Assembly: GCA_964589445.1 (NCBI GenBank)
Contig: CAZPQX010000003.1
Location: forward strand, 42,133-106,132
Reading direction: 5' to 3'
Source of the DNA: an uncultured Candidatus Saccharibacteria bacterium
GTDB taxonomy: Bacteria > Patescibacteriota > Minisyncoccia > Phycocordibacterales > WO2-35-19
Length of the DNA: 64,000 bases
Shown here: in pieces, positions 1 through 55,373 of the stretch
Numbering within the stretch: the stretch's first letter is position 1
How the letters are laid out: each line of letters opens with the position of its first letter
Program-made: the position numbers and the translations under genes
Notes under the pieces: generated by a model
Databases searched by the model: none
Told to the model about the DNA's origin: nothing
The model's input: the letters and a program-made list of their open reading frames with translations, nothing else

Positions 1-2
1 CT

Positions 3-176
3 GGAGTCTCACCTGACGGCAGGCTGATGGAAATAGCCGAGCTCCCAAAGAAAACACACCCATTTTTCTTCGGTACTCAATTCCACCCAGAGTTCCTATC
101 AAGGCCGCTCAAGCCCCACCCTATATTTTCTGAGTTCATCAAGGCGGCAGTAGAGAGGGGTAAGGCCAATTCCTAG
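3..176 (+). CDS. pyrG: CTP synthase, C-terminal fragment (5' end lies outside the window)
   Basis: Frame 3 translates to ...[40 protein letters not shown], which matches the conserved glutamine-amidotransferase C-terminus of CTP synthase (FQFHPEF.SRP..PHPLF). Confidence 0.8.
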
Positions 177-256
177 TTTGCCTTTTTATATAAAAATGTT
201 ACTCTAATAATAGAAGGTCCCAAAGAGGGCAGACTAACCTCCGGTAAGAGAGAGAC

Positions 257-306
257 CCCCGGTGCACACGCATACCTCCAATTTTCGCACCGGGGGCTTT
301 TTTATT
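257..306 (+). terminator. Rho-independent terminator after pyrG
   Basis: GC stem cccccggtgc...gcaccggggg followed by a T-run (cttttttatttc). Confidence 0.6.
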
Positions 307-551
307 TCTAAATTTGTGGTATCTTGTTTTTGCCGAACTCATCCTCTTTCGGCAAAACCCTTCTCCCTGAGGTTTTCGTAGAACCTTACAGCGTTTGAAG
401 GTAGGGGCAGGCGTCTTCCTCCGAGACACCTAGCCCCTCTTTTTATTTTCCTTATTTTCTGTTATTTTAAGGAGGTTAACATTGGCCCGCCCGCCATCGC
501 TACGCCCGCCTGCTATGTGTTGCTAAGCATTGCGGGCAGGCTCAGGCGTTA

Positions 552-627
552 GCGGGCGGGGAGATCGTCTAATGGCCCGCCCGCAACGCCTTGCTTGCAT
601 GGCGGACGGGTAGGACGACGGTTTCTG
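552..627 (+). pseudogene. tRNA-Gln 5'-half pseudo-copy (acceptor 5' arm, D-arm with a 35-nt GC-hairpin insertion, anticodon stem and loop up to CTG), fused directly to the GIY-YIG start
   Basis: gagatcgtctaatgg[35-nt insert]gtaggacgacggtttctg aligns to positions 1-36 of the intact tRNA-Gln at 874. It diverges with 2 indels and 1 substitution and breaks right after the anticodon, 6 nt before the GIY-YIG ATG. Confidence 0.55.
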
Positions 628-632
628 AAAAT

Positions 633-869
633 ATGAATTACACCTATGTATTAAAAAGTTTAAGGGATAATAAACTTTATATTGGGTGGACGAACGATTT
701 GAAAAGAAGGCTGGAAATGCACAATCTGGGTAAGGTTGACGCTACCAAAAATAGAATTCCGTTCGAAATTGTGTATTATGAAGCTTGCCTTGATAAGGAA
801 AAGGCAATTGAGAGGGAAAAGTATTTCAAGACTGGTTTTGGTAGAAAGTTTTTGAAAAGTAGGATTTAA
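633..869 (+). CDS. GIY-YIG nuclease family protein (UPF0213/YhbQ-like), copy 1
   Basis: MNYTYVLKSLRDNKLYIGWTNDLKRRLEMHN... contains the GIY...YIG motif plus downstream R/E/N residues. The ORF track extends the ORF to 591 through the tRNA-like sequence; the ATG at 633 is preferred. Confidence 0.8.
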   Translation: MNYTYVLKSLRDNKLYIGWTNDLKRRLEMHNLGKVDATKNRIPFEIVYYEACLDKEKAIEREKYFKTGFGRKFLKSRI

Positions 870-873
870 ATAT

Positions 874-944
874 TGCGGGATCGTCTAATGGTAGGACAAC
901 GGTTTCTGGAACCGTCTATCTAGGTTCGAGTCCTAGTCCCGCAG
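874..944 (+). tRNA. tRNA-Gln (anticodon CTG)
   Basis: Cloverleaf: acceptor TGCGGGA/TCCCGCA (U1-A72 as in bacterial tRNA-Gln), D-arm GTCT/GGAC, anticodon stem ACGGT/ACCGT with loop TTCTGGA, T-arm CTAGG-TTCGAGT-CCTAG, discriminator G; CCA not encoded. Confidence 0.9.
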
Positions 945-984
945 CCGCGATTTTTTAACGAGCGAAGCGACTGTAAAAAATCAG

Positions 985-1009
985 CGTCCTGAGCGAAGCG
1001 AAGGGCCAG
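985..1009. repeat. Conserved post-tRNA motif GTCCTGAGCGAAGCGAAGGGC (second copy at 55403-55428)
   Basis: A 21-mer repeated with 1 mismatch downstream of tRNA-Gln and downstream of tRNA-Ser; both copies are preceded by an AT-rich inverted-repeat hairpin. Confidence 0.5.
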
Positions 1010-1024
1010 ATTTTTAATGTCTGA

Positions 1025-1104
1025 AAAAATTTTGAGTCGCGGGAGAGATTCCTGAGTCCCGCAGCACTGATCGCAACTTTGATTGAAAAATTTTGAGTCG
1101 GGGT
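1025..1104. repeat. att-like direct repeat of the tRNA-Gln 3' end, copy 1, plus a truncated copy (1086-1104)
   Basis: aaaattttgagtcgcgggagagattcctgagtcccgcagcactgat; the part tcctgagtcccgcagc matches the tRNA-Gln 3' end tcctagtcccgcagcc. Confidence 0.55.
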
Positions 1105-1150
1105 CCCAGGCCTACAATCAAACTAGCTTGCAGCTTGAGACCCAATAAAC

Positions 1151-1909
1151 ATGAAAGAGCCAGAAATAATTCTAGATCCTAAAGAACTCGATATTTTAAA
1201 ATTGGTTCTTGAGGATATTAAAAAATCTTTGACCTGCGAATTTGCTATTGGTGGATCAATGGCACAAAGAGCTTTATTGCCAGAATTTGGGCAATCAAGT
1301 GAAGCAAACAAAAAGAGTGACATTGATATCGTGCTCTTGGCTGGGTCAAGAGAAAGGTGCCCAGTTTTGCATTCCATAAAAAATTATTTTTATGTTTTGA
1401 GCATTACAGAATCTTTTGATAGTTATTATTTCGGACTTGTACATAAAAAGACAAAAAAGTGGGTTGATTTATTTCCAGTCGCATATAGTCGTTCCTACTA
1501 TAATGTACGAGTAGAAGGAAAAGCTTATAAAGCAGAAACTATCTCAAGCCAAGTATTATATCTTGCTCACGATTTGCTGCGGAGAATAAAAGGCCATAAA
1601 GATGTGCGACAAAAATGGTTCAATAAAATAAAATTTCTATTCTCACAGATTAAAGATGTTACTGATTTTGAAAATGAATTTTCTTCTCATAAACAATATT
1701 TACTTGAAGATCTTCCCAGGGGGGTAAAAATACCTGAAAACGCCCATGAATTTATACAAACGGTTATTGAATGTGTCGCTCCTTTCGTTAAACTTTCTAC
1801 AAAGAGAAATTGGTTCCTCCTATTTAAAAATTATTATAAAGATTCTGTTGTTACCTCAAACGGCATCAAGGTAGATTCTAGGTTTGCTCTACTTCGAACC
1901 TTATTTTGA
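1151..1909 (+). CDS. Pol-beta-superfamily nucleotidyltransferase (minimal NTase fold; possibly aminoglycoside/lincosamide nucleotidyltransferase-like)
   Basis: FAIGGSMAQRALL...SDIDIVLL gives the GS...DxD NTase motif; 252 aa is similar in size to KNTase-type ANT enzymes. Resistance function not established. Confidence 0.5.
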   Translation: MKEPEIILDPKELDILKLVLEDIKKSLTCEFAIGGSMAQRALLPEFGQSSEANKKSDIDIVLLAGSRERCPVLHSIKNYFYVLSITESFDSYYFGLVHKKTKKWVDLFPVAYSRSYYNVRVEGKAYKAETISSQVLYLAHDLLRRIKGHKDVRQKWFNKIKFLFSQIKDVTDFENEFSSHKQYLLEDLPRGVKIPENAHEFIQTVIECVAPFVKLSTKRNWFLLFKNYYKDSVVTSNGIKVDSRFALLRTLF

Positions 1910-1940
1910 GGATGTTTGAAACATGTCGGCAGGAGCTCTT

Positions 1941-1998
1941 AAAAAATTTTGAGTCGGGGGAGAGATTCCTGAGTCCCGCAGTACTTGATTTTTTAAGA
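1941..1998. repeat. att-like direct repeat of the tRNA-Gln 3' end, copy 2
   Basis: aaaaaattttgagtcgggggagagattcctgagtcccgcagtacttgattttttaag; a tail-only copy lies at 2446-2466 and a degenerate copy at 5356-5410. Confidence 0.55.
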
Positions 1999-2035
1999 TT
2001 ATGAGAGCATAATTAGTAACAGGAAAGGGGGGTTC

Positions 2036-2302
2036 ATGTCGACTATCATGGGTCGCAAAAAAGAACCACTTAGTATTGAAAATATAAACGAGATTCTCAG
2101 AGGGTCCTATGGAGTCGAGGTTCGAGAGTGCCAAGGTGGCACCGCTCGAGTTTCGCACTTTTTGAATCCTGAAAGACAGTGGTGGGTTGATGTCAGTTCT
2201 CTTTTTAGAGAGGATGAAGTTCCTACCAAACAAGAAGTCTCAAAAAGATTAAACAAGCAGATTCCTGAGCGCAAGGCATATATCGGCGCGCGTTGCATCT
2301 AA
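2036..2302 (+). CDS. Hypothetical protein (88 aa)
   Basis: ORF with a strong SD (aggaaagggggg) upstream; no recognisable motif. Confidence 0.45.
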   Translation: MSTIMGRKKEPLSIENINEILRGSYGVEVRECQGGTARVSHFLNPERQWWVDVSSLFREDEVPTKQEVSKRLNKQIPERKAYIGARCI

Positions 2303-2498
2303 ATTAGTTGCCATGTTCTTCTAAAATAGTTCGTCTGTATTAATGTAGTTAGTAACACACAAGAGGTCAAGCCTCCAGAAGCATCCATCCAGCAGGTTCG
2401 GGTGTTTTTATTTGTCTAAAATAGTTTCAACTTCATACCAGATAGCCAGCACTTGATTTTTTAAATAAATATTATAGATTATTTTGTAGGAGAACAGA

Positions 2499-2696
2499 TT
2501 GGAAAAGCCAAACAAAATGATTCGTGTGACTCTTGACCTCATCCAAGAGGACTACAACCTCTTGGAAGGTTTAGGCGGCATAAAAGCCGTGGCGCTTAGA
2601 AAGGGCATTCGGCTCTTGGACCAACTTCGTCGAGGGGAGGTTTTCCTTCATACACAGAATGGGGACAAGATTCCCACGGAAATTGTCCTCCCTTAA
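2499..2696 (+). CDS. Small hypothetical protein (65 aa; possible DNA-binding)
   Basis: ORF with an SD (gtaggag) upstream; start is TTG at 2499 or ATG at 2517. Confidence 0.35.
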   Translation: MEKPNKMIRVTLDLIQEDYNLLEGLGGIKAVALRKGIRLLDQLRRGEVFLHTQNGDKIPTEIVLP

Positions 2697-2801
2697 TGTA
2701 CTCAACCGCTCACACAAACAGTCTTGCTGACTCGTTTCGGTGGGCTGTTTTTGTTTGTAAAAAATGATTAAAGTTGAATGTCAAAATGATATAATCCAAA
2801 T

Positions 2802-3437
2802 ATGAAAATAAACTTTATTTATAATCAAGACAAAGATATAGACTGTTTACTGAGTAAAGGCCCTGGCTCCACTAATCAACCAGGAAGTATGACAAAGCCT
2901 TACGAATCTCTACTCCTTTTTACTTCAGACATAAATAATAAAGAGAATGTCAGAGAATTTGTAAGAAAATATATTAGAGAAAATAATATAGATATAGAAA
3001 AAAATAAGAATGAAATAGAGAATAATTGGAATCTAATTTCTGGAGAGTTTAATAGAAGAGCTGAAGAAATATTTGGGATAATAATAGAAGATGAGGTAAA
3101 TGCATACCTGACAATTACAGGAAGGCACCCTTATAATGTAGGGAATAAATACTTTTATGTATCAGCCGAAAAGAAAAATGTAAATAAAAATATAATGCAT
3201 GAATTATGGCATTTTTATACTTGGTATAGGTTTGGAGATTTTAATAAAGTTGACCCTGTTAGATATAACGACGCGAAGGAGTCACTGACGGCAATACTAA
3301 ATATAGTATTTCGGGATCTTATGGACGGGGGATATGATAAAGGGTATTCGCAACATCAAAATCTAAGAAATATAGCGATTGATACTTGGGACAAAACCAA
3401 AGATATTGGTGTGGTCTGGAATGAGCTGATCGTATAA
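2802..3437 (+). CDS. HEXXH-motif protein (putative Zn metallopeptidase, ImmA/IrrE-like?) in an AT-rich island
   Basis: NIMHELWHFYTW carries an HExxH motif; the ORF is very AT-rich relative to its flanks. Confidence 0.4.
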   Translation: MKINFIYNQDKDIDCLLSKGPGSTNQPGSMTKPYESLLLFTSDINNKENVREFVRKYIRENNIDIEKNKNEIENNWNLISGEFNRRAEEIFGIIIEDEVNAYLTITGRHPYNVGNKYFYVSAEKKNVNKNIMHELWHFYTWYRFGDFNKVDPVRYNDAKESLTAILNIVFRDLMDGGYDKGYSQHQNLRNIAIDTWDKTKDIGVVWNELIV

Positions 3438-3513
3438 ATTATTAACGTATTTCCCCAGATGGATAATTTGATGCGATATCTTTAATTTTGTGTACTTGCA
3501 TTTAAAACCTAAA

Positions 3514-3549
3514 TATGTTATACTATATAAAGAATCATTCGCCACATTA
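3514..3549 (+). pseudogene. Remnant of a GIY-YIG gene C-terminus (VILYKESFATL)
   Basis: Matches the C-terminal VLKYNESFATL of the downstream GIY-YIG copy at both protein and nucleotide level. Confidence 0.45.
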
Positions 3550-3619
3550 ACTTTTGGGGGTAAGGTGGCCCCAAGAGCTAGGCCCCAAAGGCCAAAGTCC
3601 CGAGTGAATTCTCCACCTG

Positions 3620-3659
3620 ATTGGGCCGCCGGAAATTCCAGCGGCCCAATACTTTTTGG
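3620..3659 (+). terminator. Rho-independent terminator (perfect 10-bp stem attgggccgc/gcggcccaat followed by T-run)
   Basis: attgggccgccggaaattccagcggcccaatactttttgg. Confidence 0.6.
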
Positions 3660-3665
3660 TACAAT
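3660..3665 (+). promoter_or_regulatory. -10 box TACAAT, 7 nt upstream of the GIY-YIG copy 2 ATG (near-leaderless)
   Basis: tacaatagtacacATG. Confidence 0.4.
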
Positions 3666-3672
3666 AGTACAC

Positions 3673-3960
3673 ATGAAGCGGACAAGTGAATCTACGAAAT
3701 ATTTTGTTTACATCCTCGAATGTGCAGACAAGTCTCTCTATGTCGGCTGTACCAATAATCTAGAAAAAAGAGTTCACGAGCACAACAATTTGAAATCGGG
3801 TGCACACTATACAAAAATCCGAAGGCCTGTGGTTTTAAAATATAATGAATCCTTCGCTACCTTGCTTGAGGCGAGAGGTAGGGAGGCCGAAATAAAGGGA
3901 TGGGTAAAAAGTAAAAAAGTAGCACTTATAGAAGGTAAAGAAAATCTCCGTAAATATTGA
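3673..3960 (+). CDS. GIY-YIG nuclease family protein (UPF0213/YhbQ-like), copy 2
   Basis: MKRTSESTKYFVYILECADKSLYVGCTNNLEKRVHEHN...; near-identical paralog of the 8894 copy. Confidence 0.85.
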   Translation: MKRTSESTKYFVYILECADKSLYVGCTNNLEKRVHEHNNLKSGAHYTKIRRPVVLKYNESFATLLEARGREAEIKGWVKSKKVALIEGKENLRKY

Positions 3961-4019
3961 AAAGTTTGATTTTTATTGTGAAATAATGTAAATTCACTAT
4001 GGAAATTGTTAGAGCTTAA

Positions 4020-5225
4020 TTGCTCGTTTTGACAATACCACGACTACAAAGAAAGGTTGAAGCAAAAATGGTTAGCAGTTCTAAGAAGGCGGAGCTAGAC
4101 ATGCGGCGTGAGGCTGTTCATGTCCTAGTGTCCTTGGGGCTGTCGTATCAAGACATTGCCACCGCTATAGCCGTAGATATCGGCTCGGTGGTGAACGATG
4201 TGAAGAAGATCGCTCCCGTTACGATGAGGTTTGAGGTTGAAGGGCTGACCGGCCCACAGCGTCGCGACAAGGCGTTTAATCACTCCTTGCGCGAGTGGCT
4301 TTTGGTTAGGACTGAGAGCTACTCCAAGAGGCTTGGTGTTGATCGGGATGTGATGGACTGTATTGAATCCGCACTCTCAGTTTGCCTCGACATGAGGCGA
4401 CTCAACGGCATCGCCGAAGGTGTCGTCGCATTCGTCAATACATTGCTTTACCCGGTTGATCCGCCAGAGTATCTGCCTTACCGGCATTTACTCAGGGCTA
4501 TCTTTGGAGAACCTACCAAGCTTAAGGAGAAGAAGCCCTATTCGGCTCTGTTGTGTCACTTTGGATATTTCATTCATGGCTCGGGTTTTGAGTTTACCCG
4601 CGATTCCATCGCAGAGCAGCTTGCTACGCTGGCCATGGAAGAGTTCCGGCAAAACTTTCGCGCCCCACTCGGCGAGAGTGTTAAAATCGCTTTTGAGGAA
4701 GCTCTCAAGACAATAGACAAAAGGGAGGCAGAGGTCCTCGATCTCCGCTTTGGTCTTTCGGGGAAGAGACTAACCCCCGGTGAACTTCGTGGTCGTTTCG
4801 CTGTGACTGATGAGAGGATCCGACAAATCGAGGCAAAGGGATTGCGCAAGCTTCGTCACCCCGAGCGTTCTCGTCGTCTCCGTCCTTTTATCGAGTCTCC
4901 CTTCAGTTTTACCCAAAGGACACTCGATGAGATGTTTGTCCGTCCGGCCCCTATTCCTATTGAGGTTTCGGATACGGCCAAGCTTCTTTCTCAGGAAATC
5001 GAGGAGCTTGAGCTATCAACCCGTTCCTACCATAGCCTTAAGGCTATGGGCGTTCATACTGTCGGCGACCTCGTGCAGAAAACGGAGAGAGAAATGTTGT
5101 CCACGGGGATTCGCTTTGGGTTTGGGCGCAAGTCTTTCAATGAAGTAAAGGAGATTTTGCGTTCCATGGGGCTCTCATTTGGCATGAAGCTTGAGGACGG
5201 TGTTTTGAAGCGACCGGCTGACTAA
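4020..5225 (+). CDS. Chimeric transcription-factor-like protein: N-terminal HTH, sigma-70 region 4.2, and an RNA polymerase alpha C-terminal-like domain
   Basis: [56 protein letters not shown] matches sigma-70 region 4.2 almost residue for residue. The following [63 protein letters not shown] matches RpoA alpha-CTD ([27 protein letters not shown]...LASRGLSLGMRLE). No sigma region 2 is recognisable. Start is probably ATG at 4068. Confidence 0.7.
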
Positions 5226-5452
5226 GTCTGATCGTGGTATCAATGCCTGTGCTTGTTCTTTGGAGCAGGCACGGGCTCTCATCAAAGTTTTTTCTAAAAG
5301 AGAAATTTTTGATGAGATTTTTTCTAAAAAAGATTGAAAAAGGAGGGGGCTGCCTGAAAATTTTTGAGTTGAGGAAAGGGGAGGGATTCTTGAGCCCTGC
5401 AGTATTTGACATGCTAGTATATATTATGATATAATATAAGAAGAGGTTAATA

Positions 5453-5737
5453 ATGAAGAAGCTTTTCCTGCTCAAGAATTTGGGTCAGCCTACTCATGGC
5501 GAGACCCGTGCCATGCTCGTTTCCGCAGTCGACGAACTTGATGCACGAAACTGGGCCGGGTCGACGCCGCATGTCCCCAGCCACAACACGGGGGATCCCG
5601 AAGGGATCAATGGGTATGGGGACGAGGGTGCAAATGTGTGGAGAGATTCCACAAAATCATCTTGCACTGAAATCGCGATCTCATTCTCCACCAATTTGGG
5701 GTTCGGTGTAGTCCTAACGGACTACATCTACGCTTAA
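5453..5737 (+). CDS. GC-rich small hypothetical protein (94 aa)
   Basis: -10 TATAAT at 5432-5437 and SD aagagg upstream; GC-rich body; no recognisable motif. Confidence 0.35.
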   Translation: MKKLFLLKNLGQPTHGETRAMLVSAVDELDARNWAGSTPHVPSHNTGDPEGINGYGDEGANVWRDSTKSSCTEIAISFSTNLGFGVVLTDYIYA

Positions 5738-5914
5738 CTTGCCGCAGTACGAATTTAAAGGCACGACGTAACCAACCGTCGGCCTTTTCTGTTTGTAAAA
5801 ACAAAAGAGGATATATTCAAAATTCGGTAGGATAGAAAACTACTTATTGATAAGTTAGGATTACTAAAATCAGTAAGGGTTGAATATTGAGTAATAAAGT
5901 TATATTTTGTCTGT

Positions 5915-7009
5915 ATGAACAAGTTGTTCCAATCAGAAAAATATTTAAACTATCTAAAAAGAAGGGCTAGAAAAGAGAGAAAAGCAAAGCTAAGATATGA
6001 GTTATATATAAAAGCTAAGAACATACTTAAGTATAAAAAGACTATACCAACGTTCAGGCATCTGCGGGATTGGCCAGTTAATATAGAGGCTCCTGAAATT
6101 TTTTCACTCATTAAAAATAGTGAGGAGACAATATCTTTTATAAATAAAATAGGAGAAAATTTTAGAAAAAGAAATAAGGTTTTTATTCTTCTAAATAAGG
6201 TTGAAGAAATAGATTATGATGCAATTGCTGTATTGCTTTCCGTCATGATTCTATTTAGGACGAGTCATATACCTTTTAATGGAGATAGGCCAGTTGCGGA
6301 GTTGGCAAAAAATAAACTTGATGATTCTGGTTTTTTTGATGAATTATACAAGAAAGACAGAAGAGGGATGTCTTATGTTATAGGAAAAGACAAACAAATA
6401 TTTTCAAGTTCTGAGAAAAAGGTTGAACCATCTTTGGGTTTACCTGTTATGAAATATGCTTCCGAATTTATATGGGAAGAAAAAAGGATTTGTAAGGGTT
6501 TGCAAAGAGTATTGCTTGAGTTGATGCATAATACTCATAATCATGCCGGAGGTTATTTGAGTAGGGGTATGGAAAGGTGGTGTTTTTTTATAAATCACAA
6601 CAAAGATAAAAAAGTTGTTGAATTTGTTTTTGTTGACTATGGAGTGGGAATATTCAATAGTTTGAATAAAAAAGAAAAAGGAAATAAATGGTATGATTGG
6701 CAAAATAAACTAAAGAGTGTTTCTGGGTTACCTATAAAAATGACAAATGAAGAAATTTTAAAAAAACTATTAAATGGAGAAATGCATGTGACTGTTACGG
6801 GAGAAGATTTTAGAGGGAAGGGTTTGCCAGGAATTAAGCAAGTTTTAGATAGAAATCAAATAAGTAACCTCTGTATTATAAGCAATAACACCTATGCAGA
6901 AGTGTCAAACAATAAGTACAAATTATTAAGACAAGATTTTAGTGGAACTTTTATTTATTGGGAACTGTGCTATTCTAATAAAAATCATCCGTGGACAATA
7001 AAATTATAA
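5915..7009 (+). CDS. GHKL/HATPase_c-type ATPase (histidine-kinase-like ATP-binding fold)
   Basis: N-box LLELMHNTHNHAGG, G1 VDYGVGI (DxGxG), G2 GEDFRGKGLPGI; AT-rich. Confidence 0.5.
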   Translation: MNKLFQSEKYLNYLKRRARKERKAKLRYELYIKAKNILKYKKTIPTFRHLRDWPVNIEAPEIFSLIKNSEETISFINKIGENFRKRNKVFILLNKVEEIDYDAIAVLLSVMILFRTSHIPFNGDRPVAELAKNKLDDSGFFDELYKKDRRGMSYVIGKDKQIFSSSEKKVEPSLGLPVMKYASEFIWEEKRICKGLQRVLLELMHNTHNHAGGYLSRGMERWCFFINHNKDKKVVEFVFVDYGVGIFNSLNKKEKGNKWYDWQNKLKSVSGLPIKMTNEEILKKLLNGEMHVTVTGEDFRGKGLPGIKQVLDRNQISNLCIISNNTYAEVSNNKYKLLRQDFSGTFIYWELCYSNKNHPWTIKL

Positions 7010-55138: not shown

Positions 55139-55223
55139 GGAGGGTTGGCAGAGTGGTCTAATGCGCCGCACTCGAAACGCGGTTTGGGGCAACCCATCAC
55201 AGGTTCAAATCCTGTACCCTCCG
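55139..55223 (+). tRNA. tRNA-Ser (anticodon CGA), type II with long variable arm
   Basis: GGAGGGT acceptor; D-arm GCA/TGC; anticodon loop CTCGAAA; variable arm TGGGGCAACCCA; T-arm ACAGG-TTCAAAT-CCTGT; architecture parallels E. coli tRNA-Ser(CGA). Confidence 0.8.
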
Positions 55224-55349
55224 CTTGAGCTTCGCGAAAGCGGAGGCTGTCTAGCTTTTGGAACAAAAGCGTAAGACGGATTTGAAGAGCTTTTGAGCTA
55301 AAATTGATTTTAAGAAAATTTTAGCCAAAAGGTGTACTGAAACTGTAAG

Positions 55350-55373
55350 TTTCAAATCCTGTACCCTCCGCAA
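55350..55373 (+). repeat. Direct repeat of the tRNA-Ser 3' end (gtttcaaatcctgtaccctccgc), att-like scar
   Basis: 22 of 23 identity to the T-arm/acceptor 3' end of tRNA-Ser, 130 bp downstream. Confidence 0.55.

Follow-up and report, generated by a model that had tools for sequence, protein, structure and literature searches.

A palindrome-linked, minimal Slx1-like GIY-YIG nuclease gene at the front of a tRNA-Gln gene: one copy of a probable homing-type cassette in bacteria of the candidate phyla radiation

A 64 000-nucleotide stretch from an uncultured Candidatus Saccharibacteria bacterium (contig CAZPQX010000003.1) was analysed (the window; positions refer to it unless another locus is named). 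Its segment 484-944 holds a displaced and broken copy of the front part of a tRNA-Gln gene, a gene for a 78-residue GIY-YIG nuclease and an intact tRNA-Gln gene, accompanied by GC-rich palindromes. This segment is probably one copy of a selfish two-module cassette, made of a GC palindrome and a Slx1-like GIY-YIG gene, with a homing-type spread. In many ultra-small bacteria of the candidate phyla radiation (CPR), the cassette occupies the 5' portion of tRNA genes and of one family of protein genes. Its architecture and recurrence, the allele differences between its two target copies, its gain and loss between relatives and the purifying selection on its nuclease gene were all observed.

Parts of the window locus

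The window starts with the 3' end of pyrG (CTP synthase), whose stop codon is at 176, followed by a terminator-like hairpin and an AT-rich stretch. A GC-rich block comes next (63% GC at 501-600, against 35-39% in the downstream open reading frame, ORF). The parts of the locus are as follows.

484-560, no strand assigned: upstream composite GC palindrome (HP1), recognized from the sequence and its inverted repeats; outer arms CCCGCCCGC (486-494) and GCGGGCGGG (552-560); nested in its loop, a second palindrome, GCCCGCCTGC (504-513) / GCGGGCAGGC (532-541)
563-575, + strand: displaced tRNA-Gln positions 6-18 (a1), GATCGTCTAATGG, 13/13 identical to tRNA-Gln 879-891
576-610, no strand assigned: 35-nt GC palindrome in the D-loop of the displaced copy (HP2), CCCGCCCGC-aacgccttgcttgcatg-GCGGACGGG, 17 nt between the arms
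611-630, + strand: displaced tRNA-Gln positions 19-38 (a2'), TAGGACGACGGTTTCTG at 611-627 being 16/17 identical to 892-908
633-869, + strand: gene for the 78-residue minimal GIY-YIG nuclease (Pfam PF01541 match)
874-944, + strand: intact tRNA-Gln(CUG), presumably functional (ARAGORN; Rfam RF00005, 61.2 bits, E = 5.5e-12)

HP1 covers the spot expected for positions 1-5 of the displaced tRNA-Gln copy. HP2 is located at the GG of the D-loop, with a junction ambiguous by 2 nt, and is a member of the palindrome family CCCGCCCGC-AACGCC..-GCGGGCGGG. The likeness of a2' to the tRNA is 16/17 to tRNA position 35, then 2/3 up to 630 (position 38). A 2-nt spacer separates a2' from the ATG at 633, and the intact tRNA-Gln starts 4 nt past the nuclease stop codon. 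The whole insert measures about 320 nt, and the 243 nt separating the two tRNA copies correspond to the ORF plus 9 nt. The sequence GGCCCGCCCGC is present only twice in the window (at 484 and 574; 0.15 occurrences expected), and no palindrome of the HP family was found elsewhere in the 64 kb.

A first-pass annotation, made from the sequence alone, had described 552-627 as a tRNA-Gln 5' half with a 35-nt GC hairpin in its D-loop, followed by a GIY-YIG ORF and the complete tRNA-Gln. The hairpin (HP2, 576-610), the ORF (633-869) and the complete tRNA (874-944) were confirmed, and the GC-rich inverted repeats noted in 480-610 correspond to HP1 plus HP2. The half-copy holds for 563-575 and 611-630 (tRNA positions 6-18 and 19-38) and fails for 552-560. 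What had been taken there for the acceptor 5' arm (GCGGGCGGG) is the 3' arm of HP1, with a mere likeness to GCGGGA, and secure tRNA homology begins at 563.

The displaced copy was compared with tRNA-Gln by gapped local alignment, as MAFFT could not span the 35-nt insert. The score of 44.8 exceeded 38.6, the 99th percentile of tRNAs paired with the upstream regions of other loci, which excludes chance. The same arrangement was found in two independent assemblies from other samples (L001 and L002, the two closest relatives) and at dozens of loci with other tRNAs. L002 has the order of the window (pyrG, palindrome, 5' copy with palindrome, ORF, tRNA-Gln); the L001 contig begins inside the upstream palindrome and shows the same order from there onward. 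In both, a1 is identical and the intact tRNA-Gln is 100% identical to that of the window. The HP1 equivalent of L002 is at the same site in inverted form (score 81.5 as reverse complement vs 40 in the same sense).

The fragment 552-630 gave no tRNA match in Rfam at E ≤ 10 and no ARAGORN call, the sole call being at 874-946; it contains neither a T arm nor a 3' acceptor strand. Folding of 470-640, a check that had been suggested with the first reading, gave −79.6 kcal/mol (z = −3.2 vs shuffles), the structure being GC arms pairing together and not a tRNA. The absence of a tRNA fold had been named as a ground for giving up the tRNA origin if a short low-complexity match explained the similarity; the covariance-model scan indeed showed no such fold, and a chance similarity is excluded by the alignment score and by the recurrence. 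In the Rfam scan of 1-4200 (E ≤ 10), the miRNA matches on 473-574 reflected a mere long GC hairpin and the S4 leader and U12 matches were due to chance, so that the true tRNA was the sole real match.

The nuclease ORF matched the Pfam GIY-YIG family PF01541 with E = 2.8e-16 (60 bits, cut-off 22.6). Residues Y5, Y16, G18, R26, H30 and E62 were invariant in an alignment of 40 sequences, and the spacing of the catalytic residues fits Y6/Y17/R27/H31 of I-TevI. A profile of 40 homologues matched, in the PDB, only the UPF0213 nuclear magnetic resonance structures 1zg2 and 1ywl, which have been placed in the bacterial Slx1-like cluster as a minimal domain form without C-terminal extension (PMC1564403). 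The AlphaFold2 model (predicted local distance difference test score, pLDDT, 96.4) was compared with known structures using Foldseek. It was closest to 1zg2 (E = 1.4e-4) and to the eukaryotic Slx1 nuclease domain, with a query-normalized TM-score (TMq) of about 0.7 and a root mean square deviation (rmsd) of 2.2-2.8 Å (TMq 0.71 for 7cq3, rmsd 2.2 for 6sei); I-TevI came behind (TMq 0.49). The protein is thus modelled as a minimal Slx1-like/UPF0213-type GIY-YIG nuclease, and not as a member of the homing-endonuclease/UvrC branch. No domain beyond the 78-residue catalytic core was detected with Pfam or AlphaFold2, and the DNA-binding module looked for as a mark of homing endonucleases was not found.

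Between the window and L002 (92% identical), the ORF shows synonymous differences at 27/44 sites (pS = 0.61) and non-synonymous differences at 6/190. The resulting dN/dS of 0.026 indicates strong purifying selection, and hence a functional gene. Between the same two loci, the 5' copy with its palindrome is identical at 78/84 positions vs 102/133 in the neighbouring intergenic DNA, a conservation of the 5' copy beyond neutral expectation. 'Relic', the word first used for this locus, is too weak for a 5' copy and palindrome kept at 78/84 while the ORF has reached pS = 0.61. The database contained 636 homologues; the few with a source name all came from CPR/Patescibacteria, and a single relative was found among 2.9 million viral contigs. 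A bacterial Slx1-like domain fused to a methyltransferase of the TrmH type is reported in a 2006 survey of GIY-YIG proteins (PMC1564403). TrmH-type enzymes modify G18 in the D-loop of tRNA. G18 lies in the same tRNA part that is broken by the cassettes; this may be a coincidence.

An extended −10 motif (TGnTAnAnT) was found within 50 nt upstream of the 5' copy at 12/34 loci vs 1/33 controls, and the related loci examined had none in the interval from ORF to tRNA. On this basis, fragment, ORF and tRNA are probably transcribed together, as one unit, from the tRNA promoter. The idea that the tRNA-like 5' untranslated region provides an RNase P site was dropped, given the missing T arm, 3' acceptor strand and tRNA match. 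The plausible place for an RNase P cut is where the real tRNA begins, 4 nt past the nuclease stop codon; cleavage at tRNA +1 would free the tRNA and set the 3' end of the mRNA.

Recurrence at tRNA and epimerase genes

One genome per species was scanned, which yielded 566 relatives. The best 80 loci were examined, among them 78 gene copies with enough downstream sequence. A tRNA on the same strand was found at most 25 nt past the stop codon in 51/78 copies, often at 0-6 nt, and at most 130 nt past it in 13 more. These tRNAs belong to 14 amino-acid types (Lys, Asn, Gln, Val, Thr, Pro, Leu, Met, Ala, Phe, His, Glu, Arg and Asp). When each tRNA was aligned to the 130 nt preceding the ATG in the same locus, the pattern of the window came up repeatedly. 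It was measured in the 27 cleanly alignable loci:

start of the 5' copy: tRNA position 1-3
break position in the 5' copy: 8-21, median 14
insert length: 26-62 nt, median 40
tRNA portion beyond the insert: median 11 nt
spacer between this portion and the ATG: median 7 nt
identity of the 5' copy to the adjacent tRNA: 693/704 (98%)

After the insert, the 5' copy picks up precisely at the break point. The stretch between palindrome and spacer is roughly constant (11 nt), which hints at two junctions at a fixed offset. The end of homology ranges from tRNA position 18 to 38 across loci and follows the position of the palindrome (r = 0.65). Leader sequence outside the tRNA is duplicated as well at L071 (20/20), L027 (7/7) and L006 (6/6). 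Two genomes carry copies at two different tRNAs each. The nuclease tree clusters only weakly by tRNA type: the nearest neighbour shares the type in 14/53 cases vs 5.7 expected. Within the sample, the most similar pair from different tRNA types has a DNA identity of 79%. The invasion of a tRNA gene with partial duplication, associated with a GIY-YIG gene, had been offered for the window locus as a possibility; it is supported as a general, recurrent architecture. A variant layout, mostly at tRNA-Lys(UUU), has the palindrome between the nuclease gene and the tRNA, abutting tRNA position 1 (L012 248-306; L018 1765-1803; L047 1764-1807; L037 1766-1810). In L012, a promoter-like GGTATAAT is present between the ORF and the palindrome.

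The cassette layout was also found at the 5' end of genes for NAD-dependent epimerases/dehydratases (L045 1445-1800; L051 1425-1800; L058 1400-1800; L158 200-470). In L045, L051 and L058 the palindrome always follows GGATTYN in the box coding for VTGGAGFIG (GxGxxG). The ORF lies inside the palindrome in L045 and L051 and after it in L058; it is absent from L158, which is orthologous to L058. Host signals are used directly in two cases: the nuclease of L051 is fused in frame to the host start codon, and the nuclease stop codon of L058 overlaps the host ATG. The insertions thus lie, as looked for in a free-standing homing gene, in conserved stretches of essential genes (the D-arm of tRNAs of 14 types and the GxGxxG box of the epimerases).

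Displaced and intact copies differ as alleles in L022, L019, L051 and L158, the pattern sought as a sign of co-conversion. In L022, the acceptor stem of the intact tRNA-Thr is GCCGGTG/CACCGGC and that of the disrupted copy GCCGGAA/TTCCGGC. The 5' part of the disrupted copy precedes the ORF and its 3' part follows the intact tRNA; each lies beside a copy of the palindrome. This mismatch between the stems implies that the functional tRNA-Thr is a foreign allele. In L019 the acceptor sequence of the displaced 5' part is different, the displaced and intact epimerase 5' ends of L051 and L158 are about 65% identical, and downstream remnants are retained in L025, L068 and L004.

Gain and loss were seen between orthologous loci. 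L035 and L186 are about 90% identical over promoter, 5' copy, ORF and tRNA-Thr. Directly before its intact tRNA, L035 carries an extra 96-nt unit devoid of ORF that is missing from L186, with a diverged palindrome at tRNA position 10|11, as for the older palindrome. At 22|23 of the old copy, L186 carries a palindrome not present in L035. L061 contains two identical tandem units. Between L062 and L075, identity is 96.8% from the promoter through to the tRNA (95.8% for the ORF alone) vs 89.6% in the upstream flank. The pyrG-tRNA-Gln site of a more distant Paceibacterota metagenome-assembled genome (L204, 270-670) holds a member of another GIY-YIG subfamily (84 residues) in the same layout, with a different GC palindrome and with the TAA stop codon of the ORF inside the tRNA D-loop (GTCTAATGG).

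The insert in the 5' copies nearly always belongs to one palindrome family, of the form CCCGCCCGC-loop-GCGGGCGGG. HP2, which might have been regarded as a chance insertion, is a member of this conserved mobile family and is part of the system. Of the 80 loci, 42 have a palindrome in the 130 nt that precede the ATG, vs 5/556 control windows. The two main forms, AACGCCTGAGC... and ...GCTCAGGCGTT, are mutual reverse complements, and both orientations are common upstream of the nuclease genes (16 vs 10). Palindromes are inserted at many D-arm positions with defined, sharp ends and nest in themselves (window 484-560; L078). At solo palindromes no consistent flanking direct repeat was seen that would mark a target-site duplication, with a crude handling of boundaries.

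The collected loci contain 261 distinct palindrome copies, with the conserved arms and dispersed copies of a repeat of the miniature inverted-repeat transposable element (MITE) or repetitive extragenic palindrome (REP) kind. Metagenome contigs were scanned with one 20-nt variant of the palindrome, which occurred on at least 120 contigs. Among the matches listed (125 HP occurrences on 120 contigs), 65 have no GIY-YIG gene of the family nearby, and several of these are ORF-less units of the form [tRNA 1..k]-palindrome-[k+1..N]-spacer-tRNA. Such a unit in L163 retains a decayed ORF end (last codons FGRFLKSRV*), and L135 has two in tandem. A longer form, with arms enclosing the nuclease gene, was found at three loci only (L045, L046 and L051). 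Variation in the arms consists mostly of invariant C-G pairs and single transitions, with few compensatory pairs; because of this low covariation, a selected RNA structure is not claimed. The palindrome rather behaves as a mobile module at the DNA level. Several solo palindromes were also seen within short tandem repeats of heptamers, among them (GGTAATC)n, (CCAATTA)n, (CCTACCA)n and (TAGGTNG)n, at the metagenome loci L125 (~991), L141 (~534), L173 (~499), L193 (~680) and L123 (~5224).

Homing and other explanations

The mode of spread that we infer is the following. The cassette would enter the 5' part of the tRNA-Gln gene, and insertion alone would destroy this essential gene. It would do no harm, since the nuclease gene is directly followed by an intact 5' segment or by a complete tRNA. 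The original 5' segment would stay upstream as a dead fragment, its D-loop broken by the palindrome. The predicted nuclease would then cut cassette-free copies of the same conserved target, and the break would be repaired by copying the cassette-bearing allele, that is, by homing with co-conversion of the replacement 5' segment. A homing cassette accounts for the foreign alleles, for the repeated invasion of the intact copy, for the conserved targets and for the use of host expression signals.

Several points weigh against homing. The nuclease is a bare catalytic domain of 78 residues devoid of DNA-binding module, unlike the characterized site-specific GIY-YIG homing enzymes. The intact downstream tRNA shares the D-arm sequence of a naive target, and self-cleavage would need to be avoided. 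Homing covers spread within one tRNA type, yet the nuclease tree barely follows type (14/53), and no closely similar pair at different tRNA types was present in the sample (closest pair 79% identical). The leader duplications of L071, L027 and L006 look like an in-situ duplication of the target. The gene was kept intact at a single locus while pS reached 0.61, a longer persistence than expected from a simple homing cycle. Finally, no empty tRNA-Gln site orthologous to the window was found: an exact scan of metagenome contigs with the 71-nt tRNA-Gln gave 0 matches, and a search with the C-terminal part of PyrG recovered L203, L205 and L206, which have no tRNA-Gln after pyrG, and L204, which is occupied.

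A broader form of the homing proposal is put forward more tentatively, as somewhat more doubtful than not. The cassettes could represent an undescribed two-tier selfish system of CPR bacteria, in which a GC palindrome of 35-50 bp takes the role of a group I intron and the minimal Slx1-like nuclease acts, like a homing endonuclease, as mobiliser. The palindrome would render insertion into an essential gene harmless through an accompanying replacement 5' segment instead of through splicing. The nuclease may be structure-specific and act on the hairpin or cruciform of the palindrome, or on the extruded cloverleaf of a tRNA gene. The targets would be the universally conserved tRNA D-arm and the GxGxxG box of Rossmann-fold genes; the system would ride tRNA promoters and drive the exchange of tRNA alleles between lineages. 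If true, this would be the first 'transposase-like' activity of a GIY-YIG protein in bacteria.

The strongest competitor, which we nevertheless regard as unlikely, is a transposon. The palindrome arms would be its terminal inverted repeats, arm-GIY-YIG-arm its autonomous form and the 35-50-nt palindromes MITE-like derivatives. The Slx1-like nuclease would be a structure-specific transposase or excisase working on hairpins or cruciforms. Insertions into essential genes would survive only with a restoring partial duplication, and the window, with its ORF outside the arms, would be a derivative. The ORF between arms in L045, L046 and L051, the defined ends and precise insertion of the palindrome at many D-arm positions, and the 65 of 125 listed occurrences with no GIY-YIG gene nearby all speak for a transposon. 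So do the self-nesting (window 484-560 and L078) and flipping of the palindrome, the closeness of the fold to structure-specific Slx1 nucleases and the in-situ appearance of the leader-inclusive duplications in L071, L027 and L006. Moves between tRNA types would also be explained. Against it, solo palindromes have no consistent target-site duplication and, to our knowledge, no GIY-YIG transposase has been described. The ORF is outside the arms in the commonest layout, including that of the window, whose 64 kb hold no further palindrome outside this locus. The diverged displaced and intact alleles of L022, L051 and L158 point to a foreign donor and not to local transposition.

It is far less probable that a host nuclease gene has simply been domesticated in tRNA operons, with the tRNA-like leader and hairpin serving as a cis-regulatory or stabilizing 5' untranslated region that, for example, pairs with the downstream tRNA or binds the protein for autoregulation, with no trace of mobility. 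Such a role would agree with the strong purifying selection (dN/dS 0.026), with the conservation of the leader (78/84 vs 102/133 in neighbouring intergenic DNA), with the constant place of the ORF directly upstream of a same-strand tRNA and with a fold of 470-640 more stable than shuffles (z = −3.2). However, the identity of the tRNA is variable and the distribution patchy, tandem, decayed and ORF-less copies exist, epimerase genes carry the same layout, and presence or absence differs between orthologous loci (L035/L186). The palindrome occurs in both orientations and is inverted between close relatives, which argues against a sequence-specific RNA element. The arms vary mostly by single transitions with few compensatory pairs.

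That the 5' half is an exon of a tRNA with a degenerate group I intron and its homing gene, or one half of a split tRNA, has next to no likelihood. GIY-YIG enzymes are common in group I introns, and the homology in the window ends at about tRNA position 38, beside the canonical intron position; the first-pass annotation had likewise linked the break after the anticodon to group I intron sites, while noting that this is no simple intron. However, the homology ends at positions 18-37 in other loci and tracks the palindrome. No ribozyme, group I intron or other RNA family except the true tRNA was detected in 1-4200 at E ≤ 10, and only the ORF and 9 nt lie between the copies. What follows is a complete tRNA and not a 3' exon. 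The Rfam scan and the variable end of homology refute an intron in the anticodon loop, and the adjacent intact tRNA together with a 5' fragment itself broken by a palindrome rules out a split or permuted tRNA.

A coincidence of an unrelated tandem duplication, a repeat insertion and a small gene, or an assembly artefact, is just as remote: rearrangement and misassembly are known to occur at GC-rich palindromes and at tRNA genes, but the same arrangement in three independent assemblies of the lineage and at more than 50 loci of other species and tRNA types refutes it. An island of the integrase type was rejected because no integrase is present in 1-7009; the copy beside the nuclease gene is, moreover, the 5' part of the tRNA.

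Neighbouring features and comparison with known systems

Other features were noted in the window. Upstream of the cassette, a promoter-like TGGTATCTT at 326-334, conserved in L002, is followed by about 100 nt whose end forms a terminator-like hairpin (GGGGCAGGCG...GCCCC and a T-run, ~405-445). The segment 306-445 may be a small RNA or a leader between pyrG and the cassette; it matched no Rfam family. Downstream, three repeats at 1020-1068, 1083-1103 and 1937-1985 (the outer two 49 nt long and 94% alike) end in GATTCCTGAGTCCCGCAG. This sequence nearly matches the final 18-19 nt of tRNA-Gln and, with GCGGGA in front of it, resembles a collapsed mini-tRNA. Part of a low-GC stretch (~35%, 950-4050), whose ORFs have no Pfam match, is enclosed by the repeats of 1020-1985. 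These repeats resemble att-type remains of islands that integrated at the 3' end of the tRNA, in which case the same tRNA gene would have been used from both sides. A second GIY-YIG gene (3673-3960; 95 residues, PF01541 E = 4.5e-15), of a family about 40% identical to the first, is preceded at 3620-3650 by a different GC palindrome (15 + 15 nt, ATTGGGCCGCCGGAA/TTCCAGCGGCCCAAT); no tRNA, tRNA fragment or duplicated target adjoins it. Directly after the low-GC island, a 401-residue ORF (4020-5225) combines Sigma70 region 4 (E = 1e-9) with the RNA polymerase alpha C-terminal domain (E = 2.3e-19), an unusual pairing. The last 24 nt of tRNA-Ser(CGA) (55201-55224) are repeated at 23/24 positions in an att-like manner 147 nt downstream (55348-55371), and no integrase was found in the next two ORFs.

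If the cassette is what we propose, many small genes annotated as 'GIY-YIG nuclease family protein' in Patescibacteria would be the cargo of a tRNA-linked selfish element. A spare front end would be a third way, beyond splicing introns and inteins, for a mobile element to reside inside an essential gene. The 78-residue Slx1-type nuclease would gain candidate DNA partners, the GC palindrome and the D-arm of tRNA genes, that are testable in vitro, which bears on how GIY-YIG enzymes reduced to the catalytic domain find their targets. Half-tRNAs, tandem tRNA fragments and contig breaks beside tRNAs in CPR assemblies would have a biological cause; as the case of L022 suggests, horizontal transfer of the cassette may entail an exchange of tRNA alleles.

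Paquin, Laforest and Lang reportedly described in 1994 a mobile endonuclease ORF in the Allomyces mitochondrial atp6 gene that supplied a foreign C-terminal segment while displacing the native one. As with homing ORFs of the Allomyces type, a nuclease ORF is found here in a conserved essential gene with a substitute segment and a displaced pseudo-fragment, GC-rich hairpins accompany the ORF and host expression signals are sometimes used (L051, L058). GC-rich double-hairpin elements of the same fungal mitochondrial genomes are described as mobile in PMC3787672, which cites Paquin et al. (2000). In contrast to atp6, the arrangement is a mirror image, the 5' end being replaced and the cassette placed upstream, and it concerns bacterial tRNA genes at the D-arm. 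The nuclease is a 78-residue Slx1-like catalytic domain with no DNA-binding domain, and the palindrome is precisely at the break of the displaced copy, with arms enclosing the ORF in some loci.

SegB, encoded by phage T4, carries extra domains and falls in the classical homing-endonuclease branch. Unlike the present family, which is chromosomal in CPR bacteria, SegB comes with neither a 5' half-copy nor a palindrome. The likeness lies in a free-standing GIY-YIG gene among tRNA genes: SegB is described as a site-specific GIY-YIG endonuclease in the tRNA cluster that promotes preferential inheritance of the region in co-infection (PMC2330249) and segmental amplification of tRNA/anti-defence loci (PMC13096335).

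Slx1 and the UPF0213 proteins (BH0048, EF2693; YhbQ-like) are the best matches in sequence and fold and share the minimal domain. The eukaryotic Slx1-Slx4 complex cuts branched DNA, to go by the titles of PDB entries 6sei and 7cq4, and PMC1564403 regards the bacterial Slx1-like proteins as repair factors passed on mostly by vertical inheritance. No link of Slx1-like proteins to tRNA genes, partial gene duplications or palindromic repeats was found in the literature.

Palindromic repeats with dedicated nucleases are known from REPs with their REP-associated tyrosine transposases (RAYTs), from the subterminal hairpins of the insertion sequences IS200/IS605 and from MITEs with autonomous partners. 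The present palindrome resembles these in being short, GC-rich and dispersed, with conserved arms, precise insertion, nesting and inversion, and in having a longer form that encloses the nuclease gene between the same arms (L045, L046, L051). It differs from them in its GIY-YIG enzyme, which takes the place of a Y1/HUH or DDE transposase, in showing no target-site duplication and in the duplication of a long 5' segment that comes with insertion into an essential gene. Integrative islands that target tRNAs also land in a tRNA gene and leave a partial tRNA copy at the far junction; here there is no integrase, the 5' part and not the 3' part is duplicated, and the insert is about 320 nt.

Literature searches over 8 million full texts returned no description of this architecture, the nearest remark concerning GIY-YIG ORFs in non-intron insertions of CPR rRNA genes (PMC11270868). 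None of the known systems compared here brings together, at bacterial tRNA genes, a minimal enzyme of the Slx1 type, a palindrome placed at the break and a replacement for the 5' segment.

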